From: an uncultured bacterium
Lineage (GTDB): Bacteria; Patescibacteriota; Microgenomatia; UBA1400; PJMF01
Assembly: GCA_963544615.1 (NCBI GenBank)
Contig: CAUUGB010000001.1
Span: forward strand, 10,388-74,387
Direction of reading: 5' to 3'
Length of the DNA stretch: 64,000 nucleotides
Shown: positions 572 through 56,185 of the stretch, in pieces
How the letters are laid out: every line of letters begins with the position of its first letter
Position numbering within the stretch: the first letter of the stretch is position 1
Program-made: the position numbers and the translations under genes
The notes under the pieces: generated by a model
Told to the model about the DNA's origin: nothing
The model's input: only the letters and a program-made list of their open reading frames with translations
Database searches by the model: none

Positions 572-1006
572 ATGGATAGACACTTACTTAACAAATTAAT
601 TATTTTTGCGGTGCTGATTATTTTTGGCTTGGTGGGTTATTTGGTGGTAGTTAACTTACTCATTCCCCCAGAGGTACCAGTGAGTGCCAATGTGGCTCGG
701 GTATTGCAGGGTAATGTTGACCCCCAGCTTAATACTCAAGCTTTAGCACTGATGCGCTCTAGGAGTGATTATCAGCAAGCCAGCTTAGCTGCTTTTGAAA
801 TTTATCTAGAGGATATTATGAATACTGCCAACGATAACACCCAGGTGCTACATTTATTTTTTTTAGATCCCGTCACTCCTTTAGACAGGGATTATCCACG
901 AGTGCTCGAGCATTTGACTGTTGCTACCGCTAGTGGGGCTCCAAGTGAGTGGCAACTGGAGGCAAGTATGGCGGGTAGTTTAATACAGACAGGATTTAAT
1001 AATTGA
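572..1006 (+). CDS. Hypothetical membrane-anchored protein, possibly a pilus-assembly accessory.
   Basis: The ORF has a single N-terminal TM helix (LIIFAVLIIFGLVGYLVVVNLLI). It lies immediately downstream of the PilO-like gene with a 5-nt gap. No recognisable catalytic motif was found. Confidence 0.35.
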   Translation: MDRHLLNKLIIFAVLIIFGLVGYLVVVNLLIPPEVPVSANVARVLQGNVDPQLNTQALALMRSRSDYQQASLAAFEIYLEDIMNTANDNTQVLHLFFLDPVTPLDRDYPRVLEHLTVATASGAPSEWQLEASMAGSLIQTGFNN

Positions 1007-1059
1007 TTGATAGCAAGCTTTGGCTTGCAACAGTAGTAAAATATGATAGAATGATGAAT

Positions 1060-1395
1060 ATGCGTAAATCTGTTTTTATTTTTCTTTTAGCTTTTTTATT
1101 ATCGGCAACTAGTGCTGCCGCTCAGGGGGTGAGTGCTCCAGCGCGGAGTGTGGCTACACCTCCCGCTCGAGCAGTGGCCGCGGCTAATTCTTCCGCAGTG
1201 CCTTTAGCTCCTCCCTCAGTGGTGCCTACTACGCCTACTCCCACCCCAGTGGTAGTGGCGGCTACTCCTACTCCAGTAGCAACTCGTTCAGCTCAGCCAG
1301 TTACAGGAGTGGCTGATTACACTTACGCTTTAATGCTGGTTGGCTTACTGCTTTGTGCTGGAGTGGCTTACCGGGTGTATAGCAAAAATAATTAA
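1060..1395 (+). CDS. Small secreted Thr/Pro-rich surface protein with a C-terminal QPVTG + TM + basic-tail sorting-signal-like sequence.
   Basis: Signal peptide MRKSVFIFLLAFLLSATSAAAQG. Low-complexity linker PTTPTPTPVVVAATPTP. C-terminus QPVTGVADYTYALMLVGLLLCAGVAYRVYSKNN, i.e. an LPXTG-like pentapeptide followed by a hydrophobic span and a positive tail. The ORF track starts at 1003, but M20 (1060) gives a clean signal peptide. Confidence 0.5.
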   Translation: MRKSVFIFLLAFLLSATSAAAQGVSAPARSVATPPARAVAAANSSAVPLAPPSVVPTTPTPTPVVVAATPTPVATRSAQPVTGVADYTYALMLVGLLLCAGVAYRVYSKNN

Positions 1396-1418
1396 ACCAT
1401 TAAGGTGAAAATAAAAAT

Positions 1419-1760
1419 ATGACAAAAAAAATTCTTTTAGCTTTGTTGCTGTTGACTTTAAGCACTCAGGCAGTAGCAGCCCAGACTTCTATTACTCCTC
1501 GCAGTAATACCCAGTTTAGTGCCGCTGCTTCTCCCACTCCCGCCCCAGCGGTAGTCACTCCGGTGCCTACTCCTACTCCGGTGGCGGTAGCCACCACTAC
1601 CAAAGGTGGGGTGGTTACTAGTGCGGTTAATACTGCTAGCACCACCGCTACCACTAAGGGTGGCATGCCAGTGACTGGCACCATGCATCAGGCAGTGTTA
1701 TTAGCTTTTTTAGGTTTGTCACTAATGAGTTGGGCAGCCTACAAAGTGGCGCGCGTTTAA
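1419..1760 (+). CDS. Small secreted Thr/Pro/Ala-rich surface protein with a C-terminal MPVTG + TM + basic-tail sorting-signal-like sequence. It is a paralogue of the upstream gene.
   Basis: Signal peptide MTKKILLALLLLTLSTQAVAAQ. Linker PTPAPAVVTPVPTPTPVAVATTT. C-terminus GGMPVTGTMHQAVLLAFLGLSLMSWAAYKVARV. It has the same architecture as 1060-1395. Confidence 0.5.
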   Translation: MTKKILLALLLLTLSTQAVAAQTSITPRSNTQFSAAASPTPAPAVVTPVPTPTPVAVATTTKGGVVTSAVNTASTTATTKGGMPVTGTMHQAVLLAFLGLSLMSWAAYKVARV

Positions 1761-3349: not shown

Positions 3350-4360
3350 TTACTGACTAGAAGTCTTAAAATTAGCGGCTCGCTTCAGGAGTGGCTGCCA
3401 CCAACTTTGATGATTTTTATACCAAGCAATAGTTTGGGCAATCCCAGTTTCTAAGCTAACTTGGGGTTGCCAGGAAAGAGTTTGGGCGGTTTGGCTCCAA
3501 TCCACACTGTAACGGCGATCATGACCGGGTCTGTCGGTAACATAGGTAATTTCTTCAGCTGGATTTTTCCCCATTTGGGTAATGATGATTTCTAGCACTT
3601 GGCGATTGGAAACATCTTTTTGCAGCCCTCCTACTAAAAAGGTTTTTCCCTTAACTCCGGCATTTAAGACCGCCTCAATGGCCAAAACGTGGTCTTGTAC
3701 AAACAGCCAATCGCGCACATTGAGTCCATCCCCATATAAAGGCACTTTTTTGCCTTGGAGAAGATTGGTAATTGCCAGGGCAAAAAGTTTTTCGGGGAAT
3801 TGATAAGGGCCATAATTATTAGAACAATTAGTAATGGTGTAACTTAAGCCATAAGTATCACCATAAGCGCGCACCAAGTGGTCGCTACCCGCTTTGCTGG
3901 CAGAATAAGGTGAGTGGGGGTCATAGGCAGAATTGAGGGTAAACTTTTGCTCGCCTTTAAGTGGTAGGGAACCAAAAACTTCATCAGTGCTAATGTGATG
4001 AAAATGACCCACCTTATTTTTAACTACTGCTTCCAGCAGTACCAGCGTTCCTAAAACATTAGTTTGTAAAAAAGCTGTGGGGTTAACAATGGAGCGATCC
4101 ACATGAGACTCTGCGGCAAAGTGAACAATTAAATCGATATTTTGACACAGCTGATTAACCAACTTTTCGTTGGTAATATCGCCATGCACAAAGTGGTATT
4201 GAGGTAGTTTTTCGCAGTCGCTTAAATTAGCTAGATTACCCGCATAGGTGAGAGCGTCTAAGTTAATAATTTGGTCGTGGGGATAAGTTTTTAAGTGATG
4301 GCGAATAAAATTGCTGCCAATAAAACCCGCTCCCCCGGTAACTAAAATTTTTCGCTGCAT
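3350..4360 (-). CDS. rfbB: dTDP-glucose 4,6-dehydratase
   Basis: KILVTGGAGFIGSNF NAD-binding motif. A YxxxK-containing SDR catalytic region is present (YSASKAGSDHLVRAY). The length is 336 aa. Confidence 0.9.
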   Translation of the reverse strand: MQRKILVTGGAGFIGSNFIRHHLKTYPHDQIINLDALTYAGNLANLSDCEKLPQYHFVHGDITNEKLVNQLCQNIDLIVHFAAESHVDRSIVNPTAFLQTNVLGTLVLLEAVVKNKVGHFHHISTDEVFGSLPLKGEQKFTLNSAYDPHSPYSASKAGSDHLVRAYGDTYGLSYTITNCSNNYGPYQFPEKLFALAITNLLQGKKVPLYGDGLNVRDWLFVQDHVLAIEAVLNAGVKGKTFLVGGLQKDVSNRQVLEIIITQMGKNPAEEITYVTDRPGHDRRYSVDWSQTAQTLSWQPQVSLETGIAQTIAWYKNHQSWWQPLLKRAANFKTSSQ

Positions 4361-21354: not shown

Positions 21355-22824
21355 ATGAAAAAATTTGCCCTGGCTTTAGTGAGTGTATTGTGGTTGGCAG
21401 GAGTGAGTGCGGCAGCAGTGCCGGAATGGCATTTGCTCAATGCAGTGGCGACTCAAATGGATGTCACTGTTGACGGACAGCATTATCACACAGAGGTTGC
21501 TGATTCCGAGGTGGCGCTGGTAAATGACTTGATGGTGCAAGTGAGTGATTTTTTACACACTCACACTGCTGGTAGGGTGAAGTTTAGTTTTACTAACTGC
21601 AACACTAGTGAGCCCATTACCAGCCTGTCTGAAGTAGATTACGGGAATTTTGATGTACTCCCACATCCCGCTGATAAGAATTATTATCCTAAAATTAAGA
21701 ACTTACCTGAGGTTATTCGGCGGCAAATGGTTAGCCACGATGTCATGATAGCAACAGTCAGAATGCCGGAAAAGCTGGCGAGTAATTGGCGAGGGTTGGG
21801 ATCTACGGGATATGCAGTCATTAGACTGTTTGATTTTTCGCAGTATCAAAGTGTTGGTTTTGAGCAACTTCATCTGCAATTTTATTTACACGAACTCATG
21901 CATGGTTTTTTGAACTATTTTGCCACGATTGGGTATCAAATTCCCAATATTCATCGTCCCGCTGATTATGGTTATGCCAGTGAGATGGAACTATTTGCTG
22001 CCATTCTCTCTGGGGAAATGCGTGATCCGGCGACAGGGCACAATTTGGGGATTACTGCAGCCATGTGGGCTAAATCTCCTTTATCTCAAATAATTGTGCC
22101 ACCCACTATCGAGTTGGATCTCTCTGATTTACATTTAGTGGAGGGCAAACTAGTATTGCAAGTGGGACAAGAAGTGCATGCTCAGTTGAAAGCTGTAGTT
22201 AGTCCCGACAATGCTGGTTTAGAGGTGACCTATTTTGATGATCACCAATTGCCCCCCGGTCTGACTTTGAGTGAGCAGGGGCTGTTATCAGGCAGACCCA
22301 CTACAGTGGGTAGGCGTTATGTGAGCGTTACTGCCCAAGCTGGCAATGCAATTGATAGTGCCAGTTTTATTATTGAGGTGCTGCCAGCAACGCCTCATCC
22401 TACCCCCACTCCCACTCCTAGCTTAAAGTTGGATGTGGCTGCTTTAGGGGTAGTCAATGGTCAGCTCACGCTGCAGCCAGGACAGAGAGTGCAAGCACAA
22501 GTGCGTACCAATGCCCCTGCTAGCACGGCGGTTACTTTTACCAGTAGCGGCTGGCCCACGGGATTGGCTTTAAGCTCCACTGGCTGGTTGACTGGCTCTA
22601 GCAGGGCGGTAGGGCAGTGGCCAGTTACCATTATTGCCAGAGCTGCAGGGCAACAAGATACCGCCAGCTTCCAGCTGGTGATTGCAGCAAACAATTCTCC
22701 GGCATTGCCTGACCCTCAGTTGCCTGGTACTGGCGGTGATGAGGGTGGCGGTGGTTGTCAGGTGGCAGGCTTAACTTATTTGCTGCTGCCATTGTGGTGG
22801 TTGAGGCGGCAAAAAAAGTGTTAA
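21355..22824 (+). CDS. Cell-wall-anchored (LPGTG) zinc-metalloprotease-like protein with two Ig-like (He_PIG-type) repeats.
   Basis: Signal peptide. HELMHGF (HExxH) motif. Two roughly 95-aa repeats (PPGLTLSEQGLLSGRPTTVGRRYVSVTA... / PTGLALSSTGWLTGSSRAVGQWPVTI...) resembling putative Ig domains. C-terminal LPGTG + hydrophobic span + RRQKK sorting signal. Confidence 0.7.
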   Translation: MKKFALALVSVLWLAGVSAAAVPEWHLLNAVATQMDVTVDGQHYHTEVADSEVALVNDLMVQVSDFLHTHTAGRVKFSFTNCNTSEPITSLSEVDYGNFDVLPHPADKNYYPKIKNLPEVIRRQMVSHDVMIATVRMPEKLASNWRGLGSTGYAVIRLFDFSQYQSVGFEQLHLQFYLHELMHGFLNYFATIGYQIPNIHRPADYGYASEMELFAAILSGEMRDPATGHNLGITAAMWAKSPLSQIIVPPTIELDLSDLHLVEGKLVLQVGQEVHAQLKAVVSPDNAGLEVTYFDDHQLPPGLTLSEQGLLSGRPTTVGRRYVSVTAQAGNAIDSASFIIEVLPATPHPTPTPTPSLKLDVAALGVVNGQLTLQPGQRVQAQVRTNAPASTAVTFTSSGWPTGLALSSTGWLTGSSRAVGQWPVTIIARAAGQQDTASFQLVIAANNSPALPDPQLPGTGGDEGGGGCQVAGLTYLLLPLWWLRRQKKC

Positions 22825-23044: not shown

Positions 23045-24493
23045 ATGGCAAGCATGTCTCAAGTACCAATTAAGTCACAGCTGTCAGCTTTTTGGCAGCG
23101 GTTAACCGCCAGTCCGCAAAAACAACGCCGACTATTGGGGGCGGGGTTGCTGCTGGTTTTTTTTGTTTTGGGTTTTTGGGCTTGGTGGTTATGGCGTCAT
23201 CCCGCGAGTGTTTACACCAAACCTCCCAAAAAAGTTGCTACCGAGCGTTTGGCGCAAGTTTTACCTGCTCCCAGTCCGGTGCCAGCCGATAATCAGGCGC
23301 TGCAAGCTGCCGCTTTAATTTTGGCGCATTTTAATCCTCAAGCTGGCAACCCAGGAGTGGTAGACCAGCGTGGTTTTTATGGTGATGAGCGCTATTGCCA
23401 TAATCAGTTTAGTCGCCAAGGTCAACCGGTTTGTAAAGCGGTGTTACATGACATCATGGGTGATTACGAGAGTATGGCCAGTTTTCGCTCTACAGTGCAA
23501 CTGCTTTGGGCACGCTACCGTTATTATTTAGCCAGCAATAATCGCCAGCAGTTGACTCAGCTTCTTTTAGATGTGGATAATTTAGTGAGTAATGTGCTCG
23601 ACTCACCCTCTTATGTACTACAAAATCAAGACTTTAATTGTTTGTTGATGAGAGAGCTATATTTTTCTCCGGTTTTAGATGCTGAAACTAAAGAAAAAGC
23701 TCGCCGTCTTTGCCAAGAATCTCACCCCGAAATGCATCCGGAAAGTTTGTGGGAATATGACCAATATCATCATCCACTTTACTATATTGACGATTTTCTC
23801 CAAGTGGCTATGGTTGACTCCACTCGTCATATTCCAGATTCAGAGAGGGTTACTTACCGTGCTGCCAGTTTGCAGCAAGAGCTTAATCAGGATTTGCTAC
23901 TAATTGCTAACGGGGGAGTGCTACCAGCCACCACTTATGCTCGGATTAGCAGTGAAGATAAATTAATGTTTTTACGCCTAGAAGCTAATGCGGCGCTTGA
24001 TTATTTAGCCCAGAGCGAAATTAATCAAGCTGACGAGTTGCGCTATGAGCAAAGTATGGTGGAGTATTTGCTCACCAGCAAAGAAACACTCAATTGGTTG
24101 CTGACTACCCCCAATGCTTGGTATAGTGATGGCGCTTGTTTGGTGGGAGTGAATATTCGCGCTTACTTAGAGCGCTTTGCTCCTAATTTGCTTAGTGAAA
24201 CTCAATTAGCCGTGCTGCGGAGTAAATTGCCTTTTGTTGATGAAGCCAGCGAGCTGGATTGTGTTTTAGCTGGGAGCATTCTTTTCCCCCAAGATCCTAA
24301 TGTTACCTATCAATTGCACAAGCGTCTTAAATCACTCGCCGCCAGTTATCAGCCAGGTTTACCTTTAGGAGATTTTTTACATCAAAGTGCTGGTGATAAA
24401 CAGCCCAGTTATTATTACCCCACGGTACGTAATGCTTATTACGCCGGTTTATTAAGTGAATATGCCCAACAACAAAATTATGCCCAAAAATAA
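23045..24493 (+). CDS. Membrane-anchored hypothetical protein (N-terminal TM helix, large extracytoplasmic alpha-helical domain).
   Basis: TM helix LLGAGLLLVFFVLGFWAWWLW. It overlaps the start of the giant Cys-rich protein gene, suggesting co-transcription. Confidence 0.5.
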   Translation: MASMSQVPIKSQLSAFWQRLTASPQKQRRLLGAGLLLVFFVLGFWAWWLWRHPASVYTKPPKKVATERLAQVLPAPSPVPADNQALQAAALILAHFNPQAGNPGVVDQRGFYGDERYCHNQFSRQGQPVCKAVLHDIMGDYESMASFRSTVQLLWARYRYYLASNNRQQLTQLLLDVDNLVSNVLDSPSYVLQNQDFNCLLMRELYFSPVLDAETKEKARRLCQESHPEMHPESLWEYDQYHHPLYYIDDFLQVAMVDSTRHIPDSERVTYRAASLQQELNQDLLLIANGGVLPATTYARISSEDKLMFLRLEANAALDYLAQSEINQADELRYEQSMVEYLLTSKETLNWLLTTPNAWYSDGACLVGVNIRAYLERFAPNLLSETQLAVLRSKLPFVDEASELDCVLAGSILFPQDPNVTYQLHKRLKSLAASYQPGLPLGDFLHQSAGDKQPSYYYPTVRNAYYAGLLSEYAQQQNYAQK

Positions 24494-27400
24494 ATTCTTC
24501 TTCACAGTTTTATTAACTCTTACTTTAATTTTGGGGGGAATGGTACTAACTGTTAAGGCTCAACCAACTCCTACCCCTACTGACAAAACTCCATTGCAAA
24601 TTATCAGCAGTGAACAATTTCTCCGACGATTAGAAGAAAATTTGCCAAAAGATACTAAACCGGTTTATGTTTTTTCTGGTGCATATCAGCGGTTGTTTTA
24701 TCGACCCGCAAATAAAAATTGGAGTGGTAACTTGCTGACTATTCCCACTGATGTCCCGGCTCCTTATAAAGGTGGTCAAGATGTGCGTTCAGGAGTAATT
24801 TTGCCTTTAATTCAAAATTTAATCGACAATATTGACCCTGCCACTGATATTGGTGCTAATACTAATGTGTCTTTGCCGGCCTCAGTCACTATCCCTATTA
24901 TTAAAGGTTTAAAAAATGTGTGCGACCAGCAATGCGATGACAGTCGCTATAATAGCAATTTCCAGCTTTGTTTTCTACCTCGATGCACTGGTGGTGGTAA
25001 AGATGAGCCTCCTAAAAAATGTACTTGTGCCAGTAATTTAAGATGGAAAAAAGCTACCGATGTTTGTTACAATCAAACCATGCCCGGTGGCACTGATGGC
25101 TTGTGTGTTTTTAAAGATGAGGAATTAAAAGAGCGCTGTCGTGAATATGAATGTAGTGTTACCGAAGAATGCCCTACTGATGAAAATGGCAATAAAATTG
25201 TGGGTGATGATTGTGATCTCATGCCATATAATAAGAATTTTTCTAGTGAATCATTTAATGAAAATAATGCTTTTATGAATAAATATCGGTCATATAGCTG
25301 GATTAAAGATGCCTATGAGAATTGCTATACAGACAATTTTGTTCCTAGTAATTATCAGCCTACCTGGTGTGATGATAGTGTGTCTGTTTCAGATCCACCC
25401 GAGAATGGAGCTACTGATCCACCTGAAAATAGTGATGATTACAAAAAAGATTTTGCTTGCAATAACGATGATCGGCGTATGATGTGTGTTCATGATAATA
25501 AGGCGATGCCAGCTTTAACTAAAGCGACAGTTGATTGTTTGGCTGCTTTGAAAACCATGTTTTATGATATTGGTTCGCTTGGTGATTTATATAAAGCAAT
25601 TCTTGACATTATGAATGAAATGCTTGATGAATTAGAAAACTATATTTTACCGCCGGTGGTGATTGGTGGCGGGTATAAATGGAGCAAAACTCCAGAAGAA
25701 ACTAACATAATTGATGAGCCGGGCTTTTGTTTGAATAAGAATGTGAGTACTTGTTCTTGTGGACATATTTTACCTTTTAATGGTAGCACCATTACCAATT
25801 TGGGTTTGCGCCGTAAACTTTTGTCTTATGGAGTGGCGGATGCGAATAAATACTGTGTTAATACCGAAGGCGACCCGGCTTGTACCTATAGTTATAGTTG
25901 GGATACCGAAGAGGTGGAGGATAAACCGGTCAGCCGTAATACCAAAGTAGGGATGAGAAACATTTATGCCAGTCGGGCTTCTTATCCGGGTTGGGTAACT
26001 CATAAGGGTGGCTATGTGCATGGAGCCACTTGTGCTAAAAGACCCAAGGGCTCTTCGATTGGTGGTAGTGAATCCGGGAGTAAAACTCGCACTTTTGAGG
26101 TAACTGATAAAGAATTTTTCTTTTTACAAGCGCGCTATTTTGCCGATAAAATTGCCAGAGGAGAGAGCGACGAGCTCTCTTATGGTGGTTGTGATGATCG
26201 CTCTAATATTTTATACAATCATGCCACCGCCGCTCATTGCCAGCGCAAGGGTAAGCGAGGTATTAAATGTCGTTCGGGGTCTCGGCGGCGCTTTAGTAGT
26301 TATGCTTGCGATATTAATGGGGGAGTAATTAATCAGTGCAAAAATGGCAGAGTGGATGGCGGGCGTAACACTATTTGTCAGGTTTGTGGGCCTATTTATT
26401 GTGGTGAGCATGGTCTTTATTCCGATACCAATACAGTGCGCAAAAATTTTAAACTTGGTAATAGTCCTACCAGGCATTATAAATTTTATCGTTATTATCA
26501 TCCTCAGGGTTCCACCAAATATGGTGGTGGTGATGAGGGTGGTGGGGGTACCATAGATGGCTCGGAGATTTTTTACAGCTATAGCAGTCAAATTTGTTTG
26601 GGGGAGCGCTGTAATAGTAGCTACAATGACGCTGTTTTTACTCCACGTGATTTACCAGCTAATTCTGGTCAGGTTTTTGATGACCGCACTTGTCCCGAAG
26701 GAGAGATTGTTGACCCTTGCAAGCAGAGAGCCATTGCTAATAATTGGGGTGGGCACCGGCTGTGTTATGAGAGCTGTTGTGTGAGTAGTGATGGCAGCAA
26801 ATGTGATCGTTTTCCCCATGATTGCCCTCCGGGTGAGTGTTGTGAAGATGACGATAATAGTTGTCGTCAGCCAGCTGATAATTATCATTATGGTGGCGAC
26901 TTATGTTCTATTGGGGATGACACGAGTAAAACAGTTTCCGGAGTAGCAATTCCGGCTGCAGATGCCGAAAAATATGCTAACTACCAGTGTAATGTGGCAG
27001 GTACTTATGACACTCATTATCCAAAAAGCGTGGCTGAAAGTTATACATTCCCACTAAAGGAAAAAAGTGCTTGCTATTTTTGTGGTTGCGCTCCCATAGA
27101 GGGTAATAGCGGCAAAAGCGGTTGGTGGCCCCGTAATGCCAAAATTAAACATGGTGACCAGTGTTTAACTCCTGAACAGAAATGTGCTGCTGAATTTAAT
27201 CAAGTAAAAAATAACAAGCTAGAAATTGGCTATGATGGTTTAGCCCAAGCTATGGATAGGTCTGATGTTGATAGTCCTGTAACTTTGTTAAAAGGCATTA
27301 CTGGTATGACTAATTTAAGATGTGTGCGGTGCCGCTGTGTTGCCGGAGATGGTATTTGTGATGGGTATTCTGGTGATCCTAACGGGGTTTGTAAGAATTA

Positions 27401-30026
27401 TCCTCAGGGGACACTCGATCCAGATTGTGATCCTTTACTTCCATCACCAGGCCCTGAGTCTTGTGGTCCAAGTAATTGCAAAACACCTGGTGCTTGCTCT
27501 TGTAAAGTAAAACCTGGTTATAACTTAACTGAGTATCCTTATGGTGATGATTATGGTAATCATCCTCAGTGTCGTATTTGCATTTACAAATCCAAACCAA
27601 CTGGTTGTGGTGATGGTATTTGCAGTGGTTTGGAAACTTGTGAAAATTGTTCCCAAGATTGTGGTAAGTGTCCGCAGATGAGTGAGTGTCCCGATGGTTA
27701 TAGTAAGCTGTGCACTGGGGAGGGGTATCCTGTTACTGGTCTTGGAGATTGTAAACGCTGCTATGACCCTAATCACCTTGAGCAGCCTCAACATGGTTGT
27801 CAGGACGATGGTTATTGTAATCCTCTCTGCGAAGAAAAAGATGCGGATTGTGAGCCCGAGACAGCTAAGTATTTAACTAATGACAATGGTTGTCCTTACG
27901 GTTATGGCAAAACAAAAGAGTGTGGTTATGGTGAACGTCATCCTCTTTTAAGTGGCTGCTATGCTTGTGGTTGCGAGAGGCGTAAAAAGAACTTTATAGA
28001 AACCAAAATTGATAATCCACAGCTTTGTGATAAAGATGACAATCATGAGGAGGATAACTGTGACATTCATATGAAAGAATTTAGTTGCAGTCCATATGAC
28101 AATCAAAATAATTCTGGTTTACATTGGAAAGTGGTTACCTTAGCGCAGCAGCAGCAAATTTATCGCGATTCCCTCTGTTATGGCTATCAATTTTTTACCA
28201 CTAAAGAAGATAGCAGTGTGGTTACAGTAGGTGTTGATGTCTCTTACTATGATTATCAACAACGTGACGCTTGGATGCTTGATAGTGACGGTAAAGGTTT
28301 TATTTATTCTGACGCTAAAGGTGGTTATCGGCGCTGTCGCCCCGTGCGTATGCCTTATCGCGGTGGTAGCCTTAGCAGTGGCAAAGCTGGTCTGTGCGAA
28401 TATCGCTGTATTCCCGCCATGCATCAAGCCATTGTTTTAAGCTGTAGCGAAATTGATGCTCGTTATCCTCATGAGTACCGGGGTAATCCCAGTGATGAGA
28501 TGGTTTTTATTCCCGATGTTGCCCGCTCGGCTGGTAATAAAGAAGTTTACCTTGGTGGCACTAGTGAGGGCTTGAGTGTGGTGCCGCGTAGTAATGACGC
28601 ACGCTGTGGTCGCTATTATCGCGTCTACCCCAAACATATCGATAAGTCTGAGACTAATGATATTAACGGTGATGGCAAGGTTGACTGGCAAGATGGTAAC
28701 GCTGCCGCCTCTTATTTATTTACTGATTGGTGGCAAGTGGGTGGTAATGCTTACGGTAACGCTGGTGTGAGCAATTACGGCGAAAAAACGGCTTTTGTGG
28801 CAGAGCCGGCAGAAGTAAAAAATCTCAATCCCGCTACTGCCAAACTAGTAGGGAAAATGAAATCTTATCAGTATGCACTAAATGATGGGAGCTGTATTAC
28901 CAGTGGTGGGGAAATTAAGACCGGTGATTGGCAGCCGCCAACTGCTTATAAGCCTTCATCAGGCGCTGGTTTGCAGGTAACAGGTAGTGGCAATCCCACC
29001 ACCCTCATTAATAAACGCACTTATCGTCCATCTAATCAAACTGGCTTGGCGGCTAAAGGTGGTTACCAGTTTAGCTATCAAAAGCAGCGTGCTTTAGACT
29101 TTGAGTATTACCGTACTCTACTTGATTATGAAAAAATACCTAAGAATGGTAGTAGTAGAGTTCAAGTGAAATTAGCCGATGGTAATATAGAGGAAACTTT
29201 TGTCTACCGTTTTTTTGGCAGAAATGTTAAATTCAATGATGATATTAAGCCCATTGTAGATAGTATTGGTGTAGATAAAAAAGTAGTTATCTTTGTAGAA
29301 AGTCAGGGTGCTGAAACAAGTAATGTCGGCGGTAACTTTATTCTCGATGCTAATATGGCAAGTTATGATCCCAATGGTTATTTAGCAGTGATTGCTCAAA
29401 AAGACTTTATTATTGAGCCTCAAGTTGGTTATCATTTAAATACCCAAAATGGCCAAGGTTGTGGTATTAATACTGTCACATTATGCACTCCCTCATTTAA
29501 TGGGGTAGTTATTGCGCGAGGTTTAGTGATGAAGCGCGAGGGTGACGGCAGCGATCCCAGCAGTAACCCTACGTTGGTGGATGGTCTTTTTAATCCCCAG
29601 CTTACTTGTGATAAACGCTTAGTGCTTAAAGGCGCTTATGCTTTTTGGGGCAAGCAACCGGTGGTCTTTACCCGGACTCTTTTGGGCTGTGGTTTGAAAA
29701 AAGGTCCTTTCTCCAATGACAAGGCGAGCTTAAATGTTCACAATGCTCGAGGTAATGCTCATGGAGATGACTTTGAGGGCAGGCGACCAGATGTAAAGCT
29801 TAATAACAAGAATGCCTATGATGATTATTGTCGCACTGGCACAGTTAGGCGCAATGGTAATGGCTACTATAACTATCACTTGAATTGGCCAGATAGTCAG
29901 GGTGGGATGTACAATAACTACAATCGCTTGATTTCTGCTACTCAGTTGGTGGTTAATCAACAGTTAATTAATTTAACTCCTGCTTGGATGAGACAAAACC
30001 TCACCACTCGTTTGGAGGTGCGCTAA
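24480..30026 (+). CDS. Giant secreted cysteine-rich protein (about 1850 aa), a putative surface/adhesion protein.
   Basis: Signal peptide MPKNKFFFTVLLTLTLILGGMVLTVKA. Alternative starts are GTG 24456 and ATG 24462. The N-terminal roughly 1150 aa are extremely Cys-rich with CGDGIC...E.C..C..DCG-type modules and Gly/Asp/Tyr-rich spacers. A dockerin/EF-hand-like loop DINGDGKVDWQD is present. The C-terminal roughly 650 aa are Cys-poor and Gly/Asn/Tyr-rich. Confidence 0.7.
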   Translation: MPKNKFFFTVLLTLTLILGGMVLTVKAQPTPTPTDKTPLQIISSEQFLRRLEENLPKDTKPVYVFSGAYQRLFYRPANKNWSGNLLTIPTDVPAPYKGGQDVRSGVILPLIQNLIDNIDPATDIGANTNVSLPASVTIPIIKGLKNVCDQQCDDSRYNSNFQLCFLPRCTGGGKDEPPKKCTCASNLRWKKATDVCYNQTMPGGTDGLCVFKDEELKERCREYECSVTEECPTDENGNKIVGDDCDLMPYNKNFSSESFNENNAFMNKYRSYSWIKDAYENCYTDNFVPSNYQPTWCDDSVSVSDPPENGATDPPENSDDYKKDFACNNDDRRMMCVHDNKAMPALTKATVDCLAALKTMFYDIGSLGDLYKAILDIMNEMLDELENYILPPVVIGGGYKWSKTPEETNIIDEPGFCLNKNVSTCSCGHILPFNGSTITNLGLRRKLLSYGVADANKYCVNTEGDPACTYSYSWDTEEVEDKPVSRNTKVGMRNIYASRASYPGWVTHKGGYVHGATCAKRPKGSSIGGSESGSKTRTFEVTDKEFFFLQARYFADKIARGESDELSYGGCDDRSNILYNHATAAHCQRKGKRGIKCRSGSRRRFSSYACDINGGVINQCKNGRVDGGRNTICQVCGPIYCGEHGLYSDTNTVRKNFKLGNSPTRHYKFYRYYHPQGSTKYGGGDEGGGGTIDGSEIFYSYSSQICLGERCNSSYNDAVFTPRDLPANSGQVFDDRTCPEGEIVDPCKQRAIANNWGGHRLCYESCCVSSDGSKCDRFPHDCPPGECCEDDDNSCRQPADNYHYGGDLCSIGDDTSKTVSGVAIPAADAEKYANYQCNVAGTYDTHYPKSVAESYTFPLKEKSACYFCGCAPIEGNSGKSGWWPRNAKIKHGDQCLTPEQKCAAEFNQVKNNKLEIGYDGLAQAMDRSDVDSPVTLLKGITGMTNLRCVRCRCVAGDGICDGYSGDPNGVCKNYPQGTLDPDCDPLLPSPGPESCGPSNCKTPGACSCKVKPGYNLTEYPYGDDYGNHPQCRICIYKSKPTGCGDGICSGLETCENCSQDCGKCPQMSECPDGYSKLCTGEGYPVTGLGDCKRCYDPNHLEQPQHGCQDDGYCNPLCEEKDADCEPETAKYLTNDNGCPYGYGKTKECGYGERHPLLSGCYACGCERRKKNFIETKIDNPQLCDKDDNHEEDNCDIHMKEFSCSPYDNQNNSGLHWKVVTLAQQQQIYRDSLCYGYQFFTTKEDSSVVTVGVDVSYYDYQQRDAWMLDSDGKGFIYSDAKGGYRRCRPVRMPYRGGSLSSGKAGLCEYRCIPAMHQAIVLSCSEIDARYPHEYRGNPSDEMVFIPDVARSAGNKEVYLGGTSEGLSVVPRSNDARCGRYYRVYPKHIDKSETNDINGDGKVDWQDGNAAASYLFTDWWQVGGNAYGNAGVSNYGEKTAFVAEPAEVKNLNPATAKLVGKMKSYQYALNDGSCITSGGEIKTGDWQPPTAYKPSSGAGLQVTGSGNPTTLINKRTYRPSNQTGLAAKGGYQFSYQKQRALDFEYYRTLLDYEKIPKNGSSRVQVKLADGNIEETFVYRFFGRNVKFNDDIKPIVDSIGVDKKVVIFVESQGAETSNVGGNFILDANMASYDPNGYLAVIAQKDFIIEPQVGYHLNTQNGQGCGINTVTLCTPSFNGVVIARGLVMKREGDGSDPSSNPTLVDGLFNPQLTCDKRLVLKGAYAFWGKQPVVFTRTLLGCGLKKGPFSNDKASLNVHNARGNAHGDDFEGRRPDVKLNNKNAYDDYCRTGTVRRNGNGYYNYHLNWPDSQGGMYNNYNRLISATQLVVNQQLINLTPAWMRQNLTTRLEVR

Positions 30027-30044
30027 ATTAAATTACCACTCATC

Positions 30045-31754
30045 TTGAGGCTTATGTCTATTAATGGTCGCTATCAGCAATTTTATTCGCCAAAGATGAA
30101 GCGCCTGGTCTTTCCTCAAGGCAATCTTTATGATTTATTGCAGCAAGCTAATCAGGGGAAAGAGAATGAGTATGCACTTGATTATTTTGGTCAGCGCCTA
30201 ACATATGGTTGGCTTTTTAGTGAAATTGAGCGCTGCACTAGTGCACTTTTAGCACTGGGAATTAAGCAAGGTGAGGTAGTGACTGTTTGCTCACTTTTAA
30301 CGCCGGAAACCCTGGCAGTTTTTTATGCGCTCAATCGCTTAGGTGCAATTAGCGATTGGCTCGATCCGCGCTCTAGCGAGCCAAAAATTATTAAAACCCT
30401 CAAACAAACTAAAAGTAAATTATTAATTATCCTCTCACCATTGGCAAAAGTTTTTGCTAAGGCTTTGTCTAAAAGCAGTTGTCGAGTGGTAATTTTATTA
30501 AATCCTCTCACTCAAGCTGGTCTGCCAAGCAAAGTTTTGGGTACCCTTAAAGGTTTATTTACTCCAGCACCAGCTTTTCCCTCCAAAATTCGCTTACTCA
30601 CTTATAAGCAATTGCTTTTATTAGCCCATAAGCAGCCTGCCCCCAATATTCGTCCACGCCTTCATCAGGGGGCGGCTATTGTACATACTGGTGGCACCAC
30701 TGGGCAGCCTAAAGCAGTTTTGCTCACTAATGAGAGTATTAATGCCGAGGTTACCCAAGTGGCTAATTTTCATTTGCGGTTTAAGCGCCAAGAGCGCTGG
30801 CTCTCTTATTTACCGCCTTTTGTGGTGGTTGGTTTAGTAAATGTGATTCACTTACCCTTAATCTTAGGGATGGAGCTTTGTTTAGTGCCCAACTTTCTTA
30901 CCATGACTTTAGCTCAACAGCTTAAAACTTATCGGCCACATCATATTCCCTGCATTTCGCTGCATTGGCGCGAAATTATCAGCGGTAAAAAGTTGCAAAA
31001 TTTTTCTCTTGATTTTGTTAAAAGTATTATTGTAGGAGGGGACGTTTTTTACCGGGGTATGGAAGAGCGCCTGATTGATTTTTTGCGCGCCCATAATTGC
31101 CATATTGCCCCCACCAAATGTTATGGCTCGAGTGAAAGCTCTTCAGTGGCAGTCGCCGGCTGTAATCATCAACCTTATAATAAATTAGGTAGTGTAGGTA
31201 TTCCTTTACCAGGTAATCAGGTTGCCATTTATGAGGTAGAGAAAAAGCAACTGACTGGTCGAGCTGGAGTGATTGGGGAAATTTGTTTAGCCGGACCGGT
31301 TTTAATGAAAGGCTATTATGCCGATGAAACCGCTAGTAAAAAAAGTCTGCGCACTCATGCGGGTAAGCTGTGGTTGCATACCGGAGACTTAGGTTATTTA
31401 GATGATGATGGAGTATTATTTTTAGCGGGACGCAGTAAGCGGATGATTATTAGACGGGGCTTTAAAATTTATTCTTTAATGATTGAACAATTACTTAATC
31501 AGCAAGAGGAGGTTAAAATTGCTGTGGTGGTCGGTAAACCAGATAAAGCTGATGATGAAGTGCCTTGTGCCCATTTAGTACTGCAAGAAGATTACAGTCA
31601 CCGCCCGGCTGAGGTGGAAAAGAAGCTACGCTTGCTTTGCCAACAGCATTTAAGTGATTATCAAGTGCCGGTGCAATGGTATTTTCACCAGTCTTTACCA
31701 CTAACTGCCAATGGTAAAATAGATTATCGTTTTTTAGAAAACTATCATGAATAA
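30045..31754 (+). CDS. Adenylate-forming enzyme (AMP-dependent synthetase/ligase, acyl-CoA/acyl-AMP ligase family).
   Basis: AMP-binding motif I HTGGTTGQPKAV. Core motifs YGSSESS and HTGDLGYLDDDGVLFLAGRSKRMI. No carrier-protein gene is adjacent. Confidence 0.8.
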   Translation: MRLMSINGRYQQFYSPKMKRLVFPQGNLYDLLQQANQGKENEYALDYFGQRLTYGWLFSEIERCTSALLALGIKQGEVVTVCSLLTPETLAVFYALNRLGAISDWLDPRSSEPKIIKTLKQTKSKLLIILSPLAKVFAKALSKSSCRVVILLNPLTQAGLPSKVLGTLKGLFTPAPAFPSKIRLLTYKQLLLLAHKQPAPNIRPRLHQGAAIVHTGGTTGQPKAVLLTNESINAEVTQVANFHLRFKRQERWLSYLPPFVVVGLVNVIHLPLILGMELCLVPNFLTMTLAQQLKTYRPHHIPCISLHWREIISGKKLQNFSLDFVKSIIVGGDVFYRGMEERLIDFLRAHNCHIAPTKCYGSSESSSVAVAGCNHQPYNKLGSVGIPLPGNQVAIYEVEKKQLTGRAGVIGEICLAGPVLMKGYYADETASKKSLRTHAGKLWLHTGDLGYLDDDGVLFLAGRSKRMIIRRGFKIYSLMIEQLLNQQEEVKIAVVVGKPDKADDEVPCAHLVLQEDYSHRPAEVEKKLRLLCQQHLSDYQVPVQWYFHQSLPLTANGKIDYRFLENYHE

Positions 31755-34024: not shown

Positions 34025-34609
34025 ATGATTATGCTTAAAAGAAGCGCTGCATTTACACTAATTGAATTAATGGTGGTAGTGGCTATTATTGCTATTTTAT
34101 CTACTATGGGGGTAGCAAATTTTTCCACCGCCATTAAGCGCTCGCGTAATGCGGTGCGGCAGAATGATGTCTTGGCGGTAAGTAAAGGTTTGGAAGCTTG
34201 TTATGATGTAATGAGTGCGAGGTATTTAAATCCAGCAGGTGGTGCAGCCACTGATTGCCATAAACCATATGAAAGCACTATGACCGGCGGTGCTAATGGA
34301 GTGTTTAAAGCAGATAGTAAAGGTGATCAGTCTTGTCAAAATCGTTGTCTCAATCAGGATATAAAGCCCAATATGAATAATCATAATTATACGGCATTAG
34401 TAGGATTGGTTGATAGTGCAGAAAAGTTTGTTATTTGTGCCAAGTTAGAAAACGTTGGCAATGTGGAAAGCATTGGTAACTCTAAAACAGATTTAGCAGC
34501 ATTGCCTAATATTGAGACGGCAATCGAAACATTGTCAAATTCTACTAATAAGTGTGATGCTGGTGGCGGTACCGGTGGGTGCTTTTTCTGCGTTACTTCT
34601 TCACAATAA
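34025..34609 (+). CDS. Type IV pilin (prepilin-type N-terminal cleavage/methylation domain), a candidate major pilin.
   Basis: KRSAA|FTLIELMVVVAIIAIL class III signal with Glu at +5. The C-terminal region has Cys pairs. A strong promoter lies upstream and a strong terminator follows. Confidence 0.8.
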   Translation: MIMLKRSAAFTLIELMVVVAIIAILSTMGVANFSTAIKRSRNAVRQNDVLAVSKGLEACYDVMSARYLNPAGGAATDCHKPYESTMTGGANGVFKADSKGDQSCQNRCLNQDIKPNMNNHNYTALVGLVDSAEKFVICAKLENVGNVESIGNSKTDLAALPNIETAIETLSNSTNKCDAGGGTGGCFFCVTSSQ

Positions 34610-34635
34610 ATTAAATAAATTTAGCTAAAGCATTG

Positions 34636-34661
34636 CCCCCTCGCTAGCGAGGGGGTTTTTC
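34636..34661 (+). terminator. Rho-independent terminator after the first pilin gene
   Basis: CCCCCTCGC-ta-GCGAGGGGG followed by T5. Confidence 0.8.
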
Positions 34662-34691
34662 TTGACATACACCTGGAAATAATGCTAAAAT
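34662..34691 (+). promoter_or_regulatory. Promoter of the second pilin gene (extended -10)
   Basis: -35 TTGACA, 18-nt spacer, TGc-TAAAAT extended -10. The ATG at 34698 lies only about 6 nt past the -10, so the transcript is nearly leaderless. Confidence 0.55.
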
Positions 34692-34697
34692 GCTTTC

Positions 34698-35231
34698 ATG
34701 AAACACAAGCAAGCCTTCAGTTTAATTGAATTAATGGTGGTTATTAGTATTATTGCGGTTTTGGCAGCCATGGGGGTGGCTAATTTTGCCACTGCAATTA
34801 AAAAATCTCGCGACTCGGTGCGCAAAAGTGAACTGGCTGAATTAACTCAAGCGCTGATGATGTTTCGGGCAGATTGGGGTTCGTATCCATATCGCTATGG
34901 TATGGATGCAGTAAGGCTGACATCAACAGCCATTTTAAATTACGAAGAGCCAGCCAGTAATCCTGTTAAAACACATGAACTAGTTCCTGATTATATCCGC
35001 TCCATGCCTACCGATGAAGCACGTGTTAGTGAGAGTGAGCAATATACTTATAAGTGCATCACGCCAAAAGAGGTCATCATTGATGGTGTAACTTATTGGC
35101 GCTGTGTTGATTTTAGCGTTTGCGCTTATTTAGAAGTGCCGCAGGTGAGTGGGGCAAATGCTAAAGATGGGATAGGTACTCCTTGTCTCAATCCCAACGA
35201 TTGCAAATGGTTTTGTATGTATAGTCCGTAA
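34698..35231 (+). CDS. Type IV pilin (prepilin-type)
   Basis: KQA|FSLIELMVVISIIAVLAAMG N-terminal domain with Glu at +5. C-terminal Cys residues are present. Confidence 0.8.
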   Translation: MKHKQAFSLIELMVVISIIAVLAAMGVANFATAIKKSRDSVRKSELAELTQALMMFRADWGSYPYRYGMDAVRLTSTAILNYEEPASNPVKTHELVPDYIRSMPTDEARVSESEQYTYKCITPKEVIIDGVTYWRCVDFSVCAYLEVPQVSGANAKDGIGTPCLNPNDCKWFCMYSP

Positions 35232-35236
35232 AGTTC

Positions 35237-36178
35237 ATGCCTCAGTCATTTTGCCGCTATCCTCGCTCTGCTTTCACCTTAATTGAGATTTTAATTGTGG
35301 CAGTGATTTTTAGTATTCTTTCACTGGCAGTGGGGCGGTTTTTAATTACTTTCTTAAATTTAAAACTTAGTGCCGAGACAATTCAGCGCATCCGCCAAGA
35401 AGGCAATTATGCCCTCGACCAAATTGATTATTTACTCCGCAGTGGCTTAACCATGCCCGATGTGTGTGTAGGCAGAATTCGCCCGGCTAATCCTCCCTCC
35501 GGCTTTGATTTGCATCACGATCTTCAAGCAGTCAAAGATAATCCTGATCCTAACAACATCATGCCTGCGCCATGTGTTGAGGAGCCAAAAGATCCTGATC
35601 CTCTTAGTGTCATAACCAAAGAACCTATTCACTGTGAACTTAATCCCACTCCTCAGCCCGGCTTCAGCTACTCATCTTATCACTCCAAAATTTATGACAC
35701 TTGCCAAGAAAAATGTCATGTTTATGATCAACTGCGCACCAACACTCAGGGGTTAGATCAGGTTTATTTTGTGCGCAATTTAGTGGCATTAGCAAATTGT
35801 GATGGCAGTGGTGGTAGTAGTGGATGCCGGCAGCCGTCCTCACCTGATGAGGTATCCAGTTTATATTTATTTCGCAGTTTGGCGGCTGACCGGCGTCATG
35901 ACGATTTTGACGACTTTGCCCGTAGTCCTCAGGTGCAAAGAATTCCCTTAACTAATTGGCGCACTGGAGTTGGGGGTGAACCCTTTTCAGTAAATAATTT
36001 GCGCTTTTATTGTTTTTTTGATTATTTTGCCAACAGCTATGTGGTACACACTTCTTTTGACATCACTTATCAGCGCCAATCTTTAAGTGGTCGGTTGCAA
36101 CAAGTTGGCACCAAGCGAATTAATGAGCGCTTTGAGCGCTTGAGTGTGGTGCGCAATCCTTACCCTTTTGAATACTAA
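35237..36178 (+). CDS. Prepilin-type minor pilin / pseudopilin (313 aa)
   Basis: RSA|FTLIEILIVAVIFSIL N-terminal methylation-domain motif. It has a large divergent C-terminal domain. Confidence 0.65.
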   Translation: MPQSFCRYPRSAFTLIEILIVAVIFSILSLAVGRFLITFLNLKLSAETIQRIRQEGNYALDQIDYLLRSGLTMPDVCVGRIRPANPPSGFDLHHDLQAVKDNPDPNNIMPAPCVEEPKDPDPLSVITKEPIHCELNPTPQPGFSYSSYHSKIYDTCQEKCHVYDQLRTNTQGLDQVYFVRNLVALANCDGSGGSSGCRQPSSPDEVSSLYLFRSLAADRRHDDFDDFARSPQVQRIPLTNWRTGVGGEPFSVNNLRFYCFFDYFANSYVVHTSFDITYQRQSLSGRLQQVGTKRINERFERLSVVRNPYPFEY

Positions 36179-36253
36179 AGTTGGGGTTATTATTAACCAT
36201 TAAACTCCAGCTAAACTAACAGCTGGTAAATCTTTGTTAACAATTAATATTGT

Positions 36254-36934
36254 TTATGGAGAAGTCAGACAAGAGCCGTTATAAGGTAATTCATTGGTAA
36301 TGTCTTGGCTAAATTTTTGAGCCACCTGCACTTGTTTATTGTTGCCTTTATAATCTTGATATTGCACGGTTACCACCACGGTAACTTCTTGGGCAGTACC
36401 TGACCCTGACATAAATTTTAAGCGAACTTGGTATTGACCGTGATAACCCAGCTTAAAGTTAGGGTTATTGTCAACCTTGGGTTGACCGCAAATGGTGTCG
36501 TTAACATTACCCCTTGTCTGCCTGCTCCATTCGGTTGTATCAGTAAAAAAGTCTAGCACCGGTTTCTCTGCATACAGACCCGCTGGTCGATTAAGAATAT
36601 CGTAAGCGGGTAATTGATAGGGAAACTCACATTTAATTTCATCTGCCCATCCACTGTTAGGAGTAGTATACTCATTGCTTTTTCCGGCACATTGTTCCCA
36701 AAGCCGCTGGTAAAATTGCCACCACAACATCCCATCACGAGCGGTGCGCCAGCGCTCCAGGCAAGAATTGGCTTGGTCGACTGCCTTAGCCCGCAGCCGG
36801 GCGTCAATAATTACCCGCTGGGTATAAAAAATATTACTGGCTAAAGCTATGAGGACAAAAGAAATCAAGGTCACCGCCACTAGTATTTCAATCAGTGATA
36901 AAGCGCTTTGGTGTGAAGGAGTGGTTTTTAGCAT
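36254..36934 (-). CDS. Prepilin-type minor pilin (PilV/FimT-like)
   Basis: HQSA|LSLIEILVAVTLISFVL N-terminal motif with Glu at +5. Confidence 0.65.
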   Translation of the reverse strand: MLKTTPSHQSALSLIEILVAVTLISFVLIALASNIFYTQRVIIDARLRAKAVDQANSCLERWRTARDGMLWWQFYQRLWEQCAGKSNEYTTPNSGWADEIKCEFPYQLPAYDILNRPAGLYAEKPVLDFFTDTTEWSRQTRGNVNDTICGQPKVDNNPNFKLGYHGQYQVRLKFMSGSGTAQEVTVVVTVQYQDYKGNNKQVQVAQKFSQDITNELPYNGSCLTSP

Positions 36935-55835: not shown

Positions 55836-56185
55836 ATGGCTTTGCCCACGCGTATCATTCCCAGAGTCACTAAAGTCCAACCGCTTAAATACAGTAGCAG
55901 TGGTAATAAGTGATAAAAGCCTACCTTTACCAACCACTGCGTGCGGTAGTAACTCCCAGTAGTAAAAAGCACATCGGCGGTTTGTTCGGCTAAATTGTCT
56001 ACAATGTGTTTTTGATATTCAAAATGTAAAATTAACAACAAAAAGCCAACGAAAAAAAACACCATGGTGCGACTAGGTTTTTTGATTAAAAAAACCAAGC
56101 TAACTGCTGTCATCACACTAAAGCCCAGCACTTGGTAGTTATGTAAAAAAGTAAAATATAGCAGTTTGGCAAAATTAACTATCAT
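55811..56185 (-). CDS. Small polytopic membrane protein, hypothetical
   Basis: 124 aa with 3-4 TM helices. Confidence 0.4.
   Translation of the reverse strand: MIVNFAKLLYFTFLHNYQVLGFSVMTAVSLVFLIKKPSRTMVFFFVGFLLLILHFEYQKHIVDNLAEQTADVLFTTGSYYRTQWLVKVGFYHLLPLLLYLSGWTLVTLGMIRVGKAIQMNKSSK

Follow-up and report, generated by a model that had tools for sequence, protein, structure and literature searches.

Genes A and B and the cassette that they close

We analyzed a stretch of 64,000 nucleotides ("the window") on contig CAUUGB010000001.1, from an uncultured bacterium (Patescibacteriota; Microgenomatia). Near the start of the window are two small genes, which we will call A and B, whose predicted products end in tails that resemble the cell-wall sorting signals of sortase substrates. 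Both are on the + strand within 1003-1760, which is where an original prediction from the DNA sequence had placed them. They follow a PilO/GspM-like gene and another gene that we will call X:

1-566, + strand: 3' part of the PilO/GspM-like gene, cut by the start of the window (open reading frame 9-566); bitopic protein, whose full product in the related locus L001 has 234 amino acids
572-1006, + strand: gene X, the third gene of the cassette described below; 144 amino acids; a single transmembrane helix at the N-terminus and then ~100 extracytoplasmic amino acids
1051-1395, + strand: gene A; signal peptide, conserved head ANSSAVPLAPPSVVP, Pro/Thr-rich linker, C-terminal sorting-signal-like tail
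1294-1308, + strand: pentapeptide of A, QPVTG (CAG CCA GTT ACA GGA)
1309-1392, + strand: tail of A after the motif; VADYT spacer, hydrophobic span at 1327-1371, end RVYSKNN
1419-1760, + strand: gene B; 113 amino acids; signal peptide, conserved head QTSITPRSNTQF, Pro/Thr-rich linker, two TTKGG elements, C-terminal sorting-signal-like tail
1650-1664, + strand: TTKGG element directly before the motif of B; second copy at 1596-1610
1665-1679, + strand: pentapeptide of B, MPVTG (ATG CCA GTG ACT GGC)
1680-1757, + strand: tail of B after the motif; TMHQ spacer, hydrophobic span at 1695-1739, end YKVARV

The reading frame of gene A is open from a TTG at 1003, where it overlaps the stop codon of the upstream gene (1004-1006). 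The likely start is an ATG at 1051, 1054, or 1060 (MMNMRKS...), which gives a product of 112-114 amino acids, not 130. We take the gene to be 1051/1060-1395 because the orthologs and some of the gene calls (113-amino-acid cluster members) begin at the ATGs in 1051-1060. Two overlapping pairs of sigma-70-like hexamers (TTGCAA-16-TAGAAT, with a TG) lie in 1020-1060 and end right at this group of ATGs, which hints at an internal promoter with a very short leader for A and B. The promoter and terminator scan gave 8 consensus matches where 4.2 +/- 1.8 were expected, which is not clearly above shuffled sequence. The ATG of gene B has a Shine-Dalgarno-like site (AAGGTGA) 7 nucleotides upstream.

Both products have the build that was originally proposed: a signal peptide, a Pro/Thr-rich linker, xPVTG, about five residues, and a hydrophobic span. 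The N-terminal hydrophobic cores reach Kyte-Doolittle maxima of 2.36 (A) and 2.21 (B) over 15 residues. The predicted signal peptidase I sites, as read from the sequence, are of the AxA type (SAAA/Q in A and AVAA/Q in B). By these features A and B each have an N-terminal Sec signal peptide, and it is conserved in their relatives. The linkers are ~80-90% P/T/V/A/S, with no acidic residues. The pentapeptide lies 26-28 residues from the C-terminus; a spacer of 4-5 polar residues separates it from a hydrophobic span of 15-18 residues (15-residue maxima of 2.34 in A and 2.03 in B). A basic end had been proposed as well, and basic residues are indeed there, but the end is weak: A ends in RVYSKNN and B in KVARV, with two basic residues each that are never consecutive.

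Word-indexed protein family searches with A and with B gave four relatives each. An exhaustive search of 1.84 billion representatives with a profile of family B returned 10 proteins at E up to 1e-3, and we added seven more distant members to the family. Both families are rare and narrow. The relatives of B are P0001-P0004 and P0129-P0136; P0131, a match to the profile, was rejected as an unrelated low-complexity repeat protein. The orthologs of A are P0005-P0007 and the A-like genes in loci L016-L020, which we found by reading the loci of the relatives of B. No relative turned up when we scanned genome and metagenome contigs with profiles of the PilO-like and B-family alignments. Searches with two window proteins, meant to reach past the end of the window, also returned no record. 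No entry in Pfam, NCBIfam, or the PDB covers A, B, or X.

We considered whether A and B could be open frames that arose by chance in GC-skewed DNA of low complexity. Pro/Thr-rich DNA does open long, Gly/Val-rich frames in antisense (1458-1688 and 1466-1684, -), and a public gene call in L018 took the wrong strand (955-1350, -) and missed the A-like gene at 962-1384 (+). But the signal peptide, head peptide, motif, and tail are all kept in orthologs at 39-72% identity, the substitutions are synonymous-patterned in the + frame, and the gene order is conserved in seven lineages. This pattern of conservation rules out a chance origin, to which we would give practically no credence. We also rejected the idea that A and B are type IV pilins or VirB2-like pilins, as they lack an N-methylation motif and have one rather than two C-terminal helices.

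In all seven lineages, A and B close a cassette of five genes: PilN-like, PilO/GspM-like, X, A, and B. This position is the most robust contextual fact about the pair. The PilN-like proteins have 194-231 amino acids, the PilO/GspM-like proteins 200-258, and the X proteins 124-155; all three are single-pass membrane proteins. When the orthologs of X from the seven lineages are aligned, the positions PP, M, F, and P.D are the same in all of them. Gene X has no match in Pfam or NCBIfam. The flanks of the cassette vary with the lineage: there are rml genes in the window, and IF-2/NusA and ribosomal genes in L017 and L020. Lineage-varying flanks around a fixed cassette argue for a functional unit of five genes. 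There is no PilM, ATPase, or platform gene adjoining the cassette in any of the loci.

The similarity of the first two genes to PilN and PilO is consistent across loci. The gene upstream of the PilO-like gene matches PilN in all four of L001, L007, L017, and L020 (best E = 3.1e-5). The PilO-like fragment in the window matches the Pfam families T2SSM (E = 9e-4) and PilO (E = 0.06), and four orthologs of this gene match T2SSM in every case (best E = 2.3e-5) and PilO in three (best E = 5.4e-5), with scores below or near the cutoffs. In L001, for instance, PilN scores 20.8 bits against a gathering cutoff of 22.8, and T2SSM scores 23.4 against 27.8. A search of PDB sequences with the PilO-like profile reached PilO (3jc8) at no better than E = 0.88, which is uninformative. 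The original prediction had A and B lying right after a PilO-like gene: the position stands and is conserved in seven lineages, while the identity as PilO/GspM is sub-threshold.

Near the cassette, some loci also have weak matches to PF18895 (VirB2-like pilins of type IV secretion systems). These are at 3414-4337 and 4465-5346 in L001 (just upstream of where the window starts), at 11360-11818 in L017, and at 13518-13973 in L020. The two proteins from L001 have ~300 amino acids each. Their N-terminal halves, both Cys-rich, differ from each other, and their pilin-like C-terminal regions (~110 amino acids) are identical. In L017 and L020, a pilin-like gene of 151 amino acids precedes a giant protein (>1100 or 1727 amino acids).

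Conservation of the pentapeptide and of the tail

We compared 19 tails of A and B proteins from seven lineages. Position 2 of the pentapeptide is P in 19/19. Position 1 varies the most (Q in 9, M in 6, T in 2, and L in 2), position 3 is V in 18 and I in one, position 4 is T in 10 and S in 9, and position 5 is G in 17 and A in two. The orthologs of A have QPVTG, QPVSG, TPVSG, TPVTG, or MPVTA, and the relatives of B have MPVTG, MPVTA, MPVSG, QPVSG, LPISG, or LPVTG. The two tails with the canonical Leu are those of P0129 (LPISG) and P0134 (LPVTG); it is absent from A (Q) and B (M) of the window. These two variants join the A/B motif to LPXTG.

The motif is followed by 25-31 residues in all 19 tails (27-31 in the orthologs of A and 25-31 in the relatives of B). 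This fits a published screen for sortase substrates, which looked for an LPXTG-like pentapeptide 17-45 residues from the C-terminus (PMC4155245). After the motif come S-rich, acidic, and Thr positions and then the hydrophobic span. Some of the relatives, unlike A and B of the window, have tails that end in KRQ, RKRK, RR, or KK.

The original prediction raised the possibility that the tails would hold no conserved pentapeptide, but it is kept in all 19 relatives. Its codons are saturated with synonymous changes (CCA/CCG/CCT/CCC for Pro, GTT/GTA/GTG/GTC for Val, and TCN/AGC/ACN for Ser or Thr) and they differ in almost every lineage, which shows that the peptide itself is under purifying selection. 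When each protein was shuffled with its composition preserved, P[VI][TS][GA] fell within the 13 residues before the span in ~2% of the shuffles. As a control, we compared the C-terminally anchored CAP-domain protein encoded at 56175-56996 with its counterpart in a relative; the two have no pentapeptide in common. The sequences thus support the view that the tails have the anatomy of cell-wall sorting signals and that the pentapeptide is conserved, selected, and no accident.

(The CAP/YkwD-domain protein is on the - strand, two genes downstream of the sortase discussed below. It has a C-terminal membrane span and a strongly basic end, KRGKRKK; in place of a conserved pentapeptide, it has TTITGG here and LPKTQ in L011.)

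A single profile built from the tails gives 51-66 bits for all A and B tails, and at most 4.4 bits for everything else in the 265 kb of the window and the related loci. A relaxed regular expression over the same DNA agrees, and its sole extra match is a chance LPLSG in a polytopic FtsX-like protein. Therefore, A and B share one C-terminal domain that is confined to these two families in the 265 kb examined. A direct comparison of A to B with BLASTP is insignificant (E = 0.28), so it is the shared tail profile that identifies them as paralogs. A lack of other proteins with the PVTG tail was to count against the original prediction; there are indeed none in the 265 kb besides the orthologs of A and B, so we describe the tail as a family-specific C-terminal domain and not as a genome-wide class of motif.

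Each family also has its own conserved head just after the signal peptide: [N/Y]SSxxP[V/L/I][P/A]PP in family A, and a peptide similar to QTSITPRSNTQ in family B. Closer to the motif, TKGG is invariant in nine aligned members of family B (alignment columns T79, K80, G81, and G82). In most members, the predicted mature peptide contains no Lys other than the one in TTKGG. No Lys is conserved in A.

There is some variation around the motif among close relatives. B of the window has an internal duplication of the TTKGG element (TTTKGGVVTSAVNTASTTATTKGG, 1596-1664). In P0002 and P0003, which are close relatives of B, there are 11 residues between TTKGG and the motif, with a second Lys before MPVTG. 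The residue right after QPVTG in A (1309-1311) is polymorphic among strains whose A proteins are 96-98% identical. The window has V at this site, L004 and P0005 have A, and L001-L003, L005, and L006 have M; elsewhere the tail is unchanged.

The sortase of the window and other candidate systems

The window encodes one sortase, which is our candidate for the enzyme that would process A and B. The sortase, its neighbor, and the protein of the window with a canonical LPXTG motif are:

54751-55461, + strand: sortase, the only one in the window; N-terminal membrane helix and sortase beta-barrel; candidate processing enzyme for A and B
52614-54740, + strand: bitopic protein of 708 amino acids, immediately upstream of the sortase; no match assigns it a function or a system (context)
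21355-22824, + strand: secreted HELMH-motif protein with the only canonical LPXTG motif in the window; end LPGTG-GDEGGGGC-LTYLLLPLWWL-RRQKKC

As originally predicted, the sortase is the only one in the window: a profile of 40 sortases had one match among all of the six-frame open reading frames. It matches PF04203 with E = 1.9e-15 (57.1 bits, with a cutoff of 26.6), and the residues of its catalytic triad, His144, Cys218, and Arg226, are invariant in 40 homologs. An AlphaFold 2 model (pLDDT of 84.6) is similar to many sortases with a Foldseek probability of 1.00. In fold and PDB sequence searches, the nearest structures are of classes C, D, and A, and they are roughly equidistant (TM-scores of 0.45-0.5 and 17-27% identity).

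The original prediction called for classifying this sortase with hidden Markov models. It does not reach the NCBIfam cutoff of any class from A to F: it scores 32.9 bits for class C (cutoff 160), 26.7 for class E (160), 23.0 for class D (165), and 17.3 for class F (166). TIGR01076 comes closest, with 37.8 bits and a cutoff of 39.35. We detected 488 homologs of this sortase with Patescibacteria names (Pacebacteria, Woesebacteria, and Chisholmbacteria). Judging from these scores and homologs, the sortase belongs to a large Patescibacteria clade that lies outside the cutoffs for classes A-F.

The cassette and the sortase occur together in the window and in sample SRR33696108 (loci L009 and L013). 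In a more distant lineage, P0135 (from the cassette) and P0028 (a sortase) probably share one contig of 271,983 bp.

The pairing of the sortase with a protein of 708-720 amino acids is conserved in L011-L015, where the sortases are 50-67% identical. The usual gene order is a YtxH-like gene, the gene for the 708-amino-acid protein, the sortase, and RuvX. This neighbor has a cytoplasmic region of ~330 amino acids, one transmembrane helix, and an outside region of ~350 amino acids. It has no match in Pfam or NCBIfam, and phmmer with the whole protein found nothing among PDB sequences. As a check for a PilM/GspL-like fold, we ran AlphaFold 2 on its N-terminal 308 residues from the single sequence; the model (pLDDT of 38.8) is uninterpretable. 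The protein could be a partner of the sortase or a GspL/PilM-like protein.

The protein at 21355-22824 was originally described as a protease with an LPXTG-type anchor. It does have the LPGTG end and a zinc-protease-like HELMH motif, along with two repeated domains, but no protease family model matches it. Its tail is atypical: GGGGC separates the motif from a short span that contains proline, and there is a weak match to Synerg-CTERM (E = 0.03). The tail seems to combine an LPXTG signal with a C-terminal signal of the Gly/Cys type, and the profile of the A/B tails does not recognize it.

The presence of LPGTG and xPVTG tails in one window led the original prediction to suggest a second sortase specificity, and the two kinds of tail do not fit one profile. 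In such a scheme, a second paralog encoded outside the window would act on xPV(T/S)G, and the sortase of the window would act on LPXTG. Dedicated pairs of sortase and substrate are common in Firmicutes (PMC11231552). But the 64-kb window has one sortase gene only, the genomes of this group are small, and a single sortase family has been reported in them (PMC6744442, PMC7143001). Nor is a separate specificity needed: within families A and B alike, the first residue of the motif shifts between Q, M, T, and L. Because Leu is one of these, xPVTG grades into LPXTG, and a single tolerant enzyme could act on both. We consider two specificities to be improbable, and this scheme would refine rather than oppose processing of A and B by a sortase.

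The tails could instead be signals for a C-terminal system that does not use a sortase and is encoded elsewhere, such as an exosortase, archaeosortase, rhombosortase, or myxosortase-like system or an undescribed one. Many such tripartite C-terminal signals exist, the A/B tails form a tight profile of their own that is distinct from the LPGTG protein, and we see just 64 kb of the genome. However, PEP-CTERM, GlyGly-CTERM, PGF-CTERM, MYXO-CTERM, and Synerg-CTERM have no match in A, B, or nine members of family B at E up to 1, so we rejected these and similar identities for the tails. Among the C-terminal sorting domains in NCBIfam, A and B touch sortase-type models only, all below threshold. No enzyme of these other systems was found among the window proteins that we scanned, and the chemistry of the motif (P-x-T/S-G/A) is of the sortase type. 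Also, exosortase, archaeosortase, and rhombosortase-type systems are typical of diderm bacteria or archaea. We view such a system as very unlikely here.

The sortase-type matches themselves are faint. TIGR01167 (LPXTG_anchor) matches one of nine members of family B at E = 0.85, and the LPXTA model gives E = 0.27. In Pfam, including Gram_pos_anchor, there is no match to A or B at E = 0.1. The best similarity is to NF053819, which matches five of nine members of family B weakly; B of the window scores 19.4 bits (E = 1.1e-3), with a cutoff of 47 bits.

At 24456-30026 (+) is a gene for a secreted protein of 1856 amino acids with no match in Pfam. The genes after it encode an AMP-binding enzyme (30045-31754) and more membrane or secreted proteins that lack annotation. 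Five genes at 34025-37593 (three + and two -) encode type IV pilin-like proteins with prepilin N-methylation motifs. Downstream of them are a 7TM_transglut membrane protein (37707-38750) and an ATP-grasp enzyme associated with sugar transfer (38755-40050). Scans for Rfam families and tRNAs found one tRNA-Arg and no rRNA in the window. GC skew is positive in 16/16 blocks of 4 kb (1-64000), AT skew is negative in most, and the + strand carries the majority of the genes, consistent with one replichore that has a strong strand bias.

Are A and B processed by a sortase?

We propose that a sortase processes A and B by way of a signal specific to their lineage, [Q/M/T/L]-P-[V/I]-[T/S]-[G/A], and that they probably work with the PilN/PilO-type platform; we give this reading a probability of roughly 0.6. 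A sortase signal predicts the tripartite tail, the fixed distances from the motif to the span and to the C-terminus, the T/S followed by G/A with an invariant Pro, and the variants with Leu, none of which would be predicted for a generic membrane anchor. At the scissile bond of a sortase, a T/S-G/A pair is what one would expect.

A and B would be paralogous, Sec-exported, intrinsically disordered peptides that are rich in Pro, Thr, Val, and Ala, with ~60-65 residues once processed, and their last 31-33 residues would be the sorting signal. After export by Sec, signal peptidase I would cleave after AxA, and the C-terminal hydrophobic span and the basic end would keep the precursor in the membrane. 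The membrane-anchored sortase (54751-55461) would then cut between T/S and G/A and pass the peptide to an amine nucleophile, most likely a peptidoglycan precursor. The result would be two short, extended stalks that are fixed in the wall, and each would present the conserved head of its family at the N-terminus (A, NSSxxP(V/L/I)(P/A)PP; B, QTSITPRSNTQ). Because A and B are always the last two genes of the cassette, they most likely act together with the PilN/PilO-type membrane platform. In this single-membrane bacterium, they could tie the platform to the wall or line its passage through the wall.

A number of findings weigh against processing by a sortase. A and B of the window lack two consecutive basic residues at the C-terminus, and some substrate screens require at least two (PMC4155245). 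Position 3 of the motif is nearly invariant as Val, whereas position 3 of LPXTG is free. No curated LPXTG-anchor model in Pfam or NCBIfam matches A or B meaningfully, and no unrelated protein carries their tail in the 265 kb that we sampled. The sortase gene is not adjacent to the cassette; it is ~53 kb away. The PilN and PilO assignments, though consistent, are sub-threshold. A Cys is conserved inside the hydrophobic span of the orthologs of A, and G...GA(Y/F)K is conserved in the tails of B; conservation within the span exceeds the needs of a disposable retention signal, so it fits a functional membrane anchor.

A and B might instead be uncleaved, C-terminally anchored bitopic proteins of a PilN/PilO/X platform. 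P-V-(T/S)-G would then be a structural, hinge, or glycosylation element next to the membrane, with no role in sorting. Since the three upstream proteins of the cassette are single-pass, five interacting membrane proteins are plausible. The conservation of residues in the span and of an A(Y/F)(K/R) boundary fits this view. The confinement of the tail to families A and B also fits, as does the distance of the cassette from a sortase that has its own conserved neighbor. A hinge, however, would not require the substitution pattern and the fixed distances, which are typical of sortase signals. Also, the one (weak) similarity to a known family is to small sortase-dependent proteins, and the anchor of the CAP-domain protein shows no such conservation of a motif. 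We think that simple anchoring is unlikely, but we retain it as a serious alternative because of the weak basic end, the fixed Val, the conservation within the span, the lack of a match to anchor models, and the lack of an unrelated carrier.

If A and B are sortase substrates, their signal departs from the LPXTG type (TIGR01167/PF00746) in several ways. Both types have P at position 2, T/S at position 4, and G/A at position 5, followed by a polar spacer, a hydrophobic span, and basic residues. LPXTG substrates also resemble A and B in having an N-terminal Sec signal, a sortase encoded by the same genome, and a Pro/Thr-rich region that spans the wall and precedes the motif. But A and B have Q, M, or T and rarely L at position 1, a fixed Val at position 3, and Ser as often as Thr at position 4. 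Their basic end is weak, the curated anchor models are unmatched (the best E is 0.85), and they have no folded passenger domain.

A first residue other than Leu has precedents. SrtB from Clostridioides difficile cleaves (S/P)PXTG (PMC4155245), and QVPTGV (from S. pyogenes), LAXTG, and NPQTN are proven variants of the sortase signal (PMC11231552). In C. difficile and S. pyogenes, as we propose here, the lineage's sortase is co-adapted to a signal without an initial Leu (PMC4155245, PMC11231552). Those are class B or class C sortases from Firmicutes, whereas this one is from a Patescibacteria clade that falls below the class cutoffs, and the residues of the motifs differ.

There is a likeness in overall architecture to the EF2685/EF0750 family (NF053819), whose members have ~105 amino acids, a signal peptide, a short low-complexity region, and a sorting signal. 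Among known families, it is the only one that members of family B touch (best E = 1e-3). Those proteins are enterococcal and have LPXTG. The score of B is far below the cutoff for NF053819, so this is a likeness of architecture and not demonstrated homology.

The first two genes of the cassette resemble parts of PilM-PilN-PilO(-PilP) or GspL-GspM: they encode bitopic proteins with consistent matches to PilN and to PilO/T2SSM, and there are five pilin-like genes in the window. PilN, PilO, and type IV pilins are enriched in genomes from the Candidate Phyla Radiation (CPR; PMC6744442). Unlike in those systems, the matches here are sub-threshold, and PilM, ATPase, and platform genes are not adjacent. 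The ending of the cassette is distinctive as well: we know of no pilus alignment operon whose last genes encode peptides with a sortase signal.

Sortases also assemble the pilins of Gram-positive bacteria. Class C polymerases are among the structural neighbors of the window's sortase, and the invariant Lys of B (in TTKGG) could in principle be a nucleophile. But A and B lack Ig-like/CnaB domains, a YPKN pilin motif, an E-box, and an adjacent sortase. A more speculative proposal, which we consider a long shot, is that the acceptor is not (or not only) peptidoglycan, but rather the invariant Lys of B, the head peptides, or an amine of PilN, PilO, or X. A and B would then be covalently joined into a domain-less, Pro/Thr-rich fiber or collar on the PilN/PilO platform.

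Sortases have been reported to be nearly ubiquitous in Microgenomates and to occur in over half of the genomes from the CPR (PMC6744442). No paper in the literature that we searched names a substrate or a sorting motif for a CPR sortase. The sortase signal is already known as a kind of system; what is new here is the variant of the motif, the domain-less substrates, the sortase clade outside of classes A-F, and the fixed association with PilN/PilO-like genes. If the tails are plain membrane anchors, what is left would still be a conserved cassette of five envelope genes from an uncultured lineage, a finding of modest interest. If A and B do form a fiber or collar, this would be a new sortase-built envelope structure that couples a machine similar to type IV pili or type II secretion to the wall of this ultrasmall, single-membrane bacterium, and it would explain why sortases are nearly universal in Microgenomates.

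A and B are the first concrete candidates for substrates of the poorly understood CPR sortases. They provide test peptides that can be synthesized (...TTKGG-MPVTG-TMH and ...SAQPVTG-VADY; TTKGGMPVTGTMH, RSAQPVTGVADY, TTKGGMPVTGTMHQ, and TRSAQPVTGVADYT). Together with the identified enzyme, such peptides allow a direct test of specificity for a sortase clade that falls outside of classes A-F. The position of A and B behind PilN/PilO-like genes may also give a handle on how pilus- or secretion-type machines join or cross the wall of single-membrane episymbionts.

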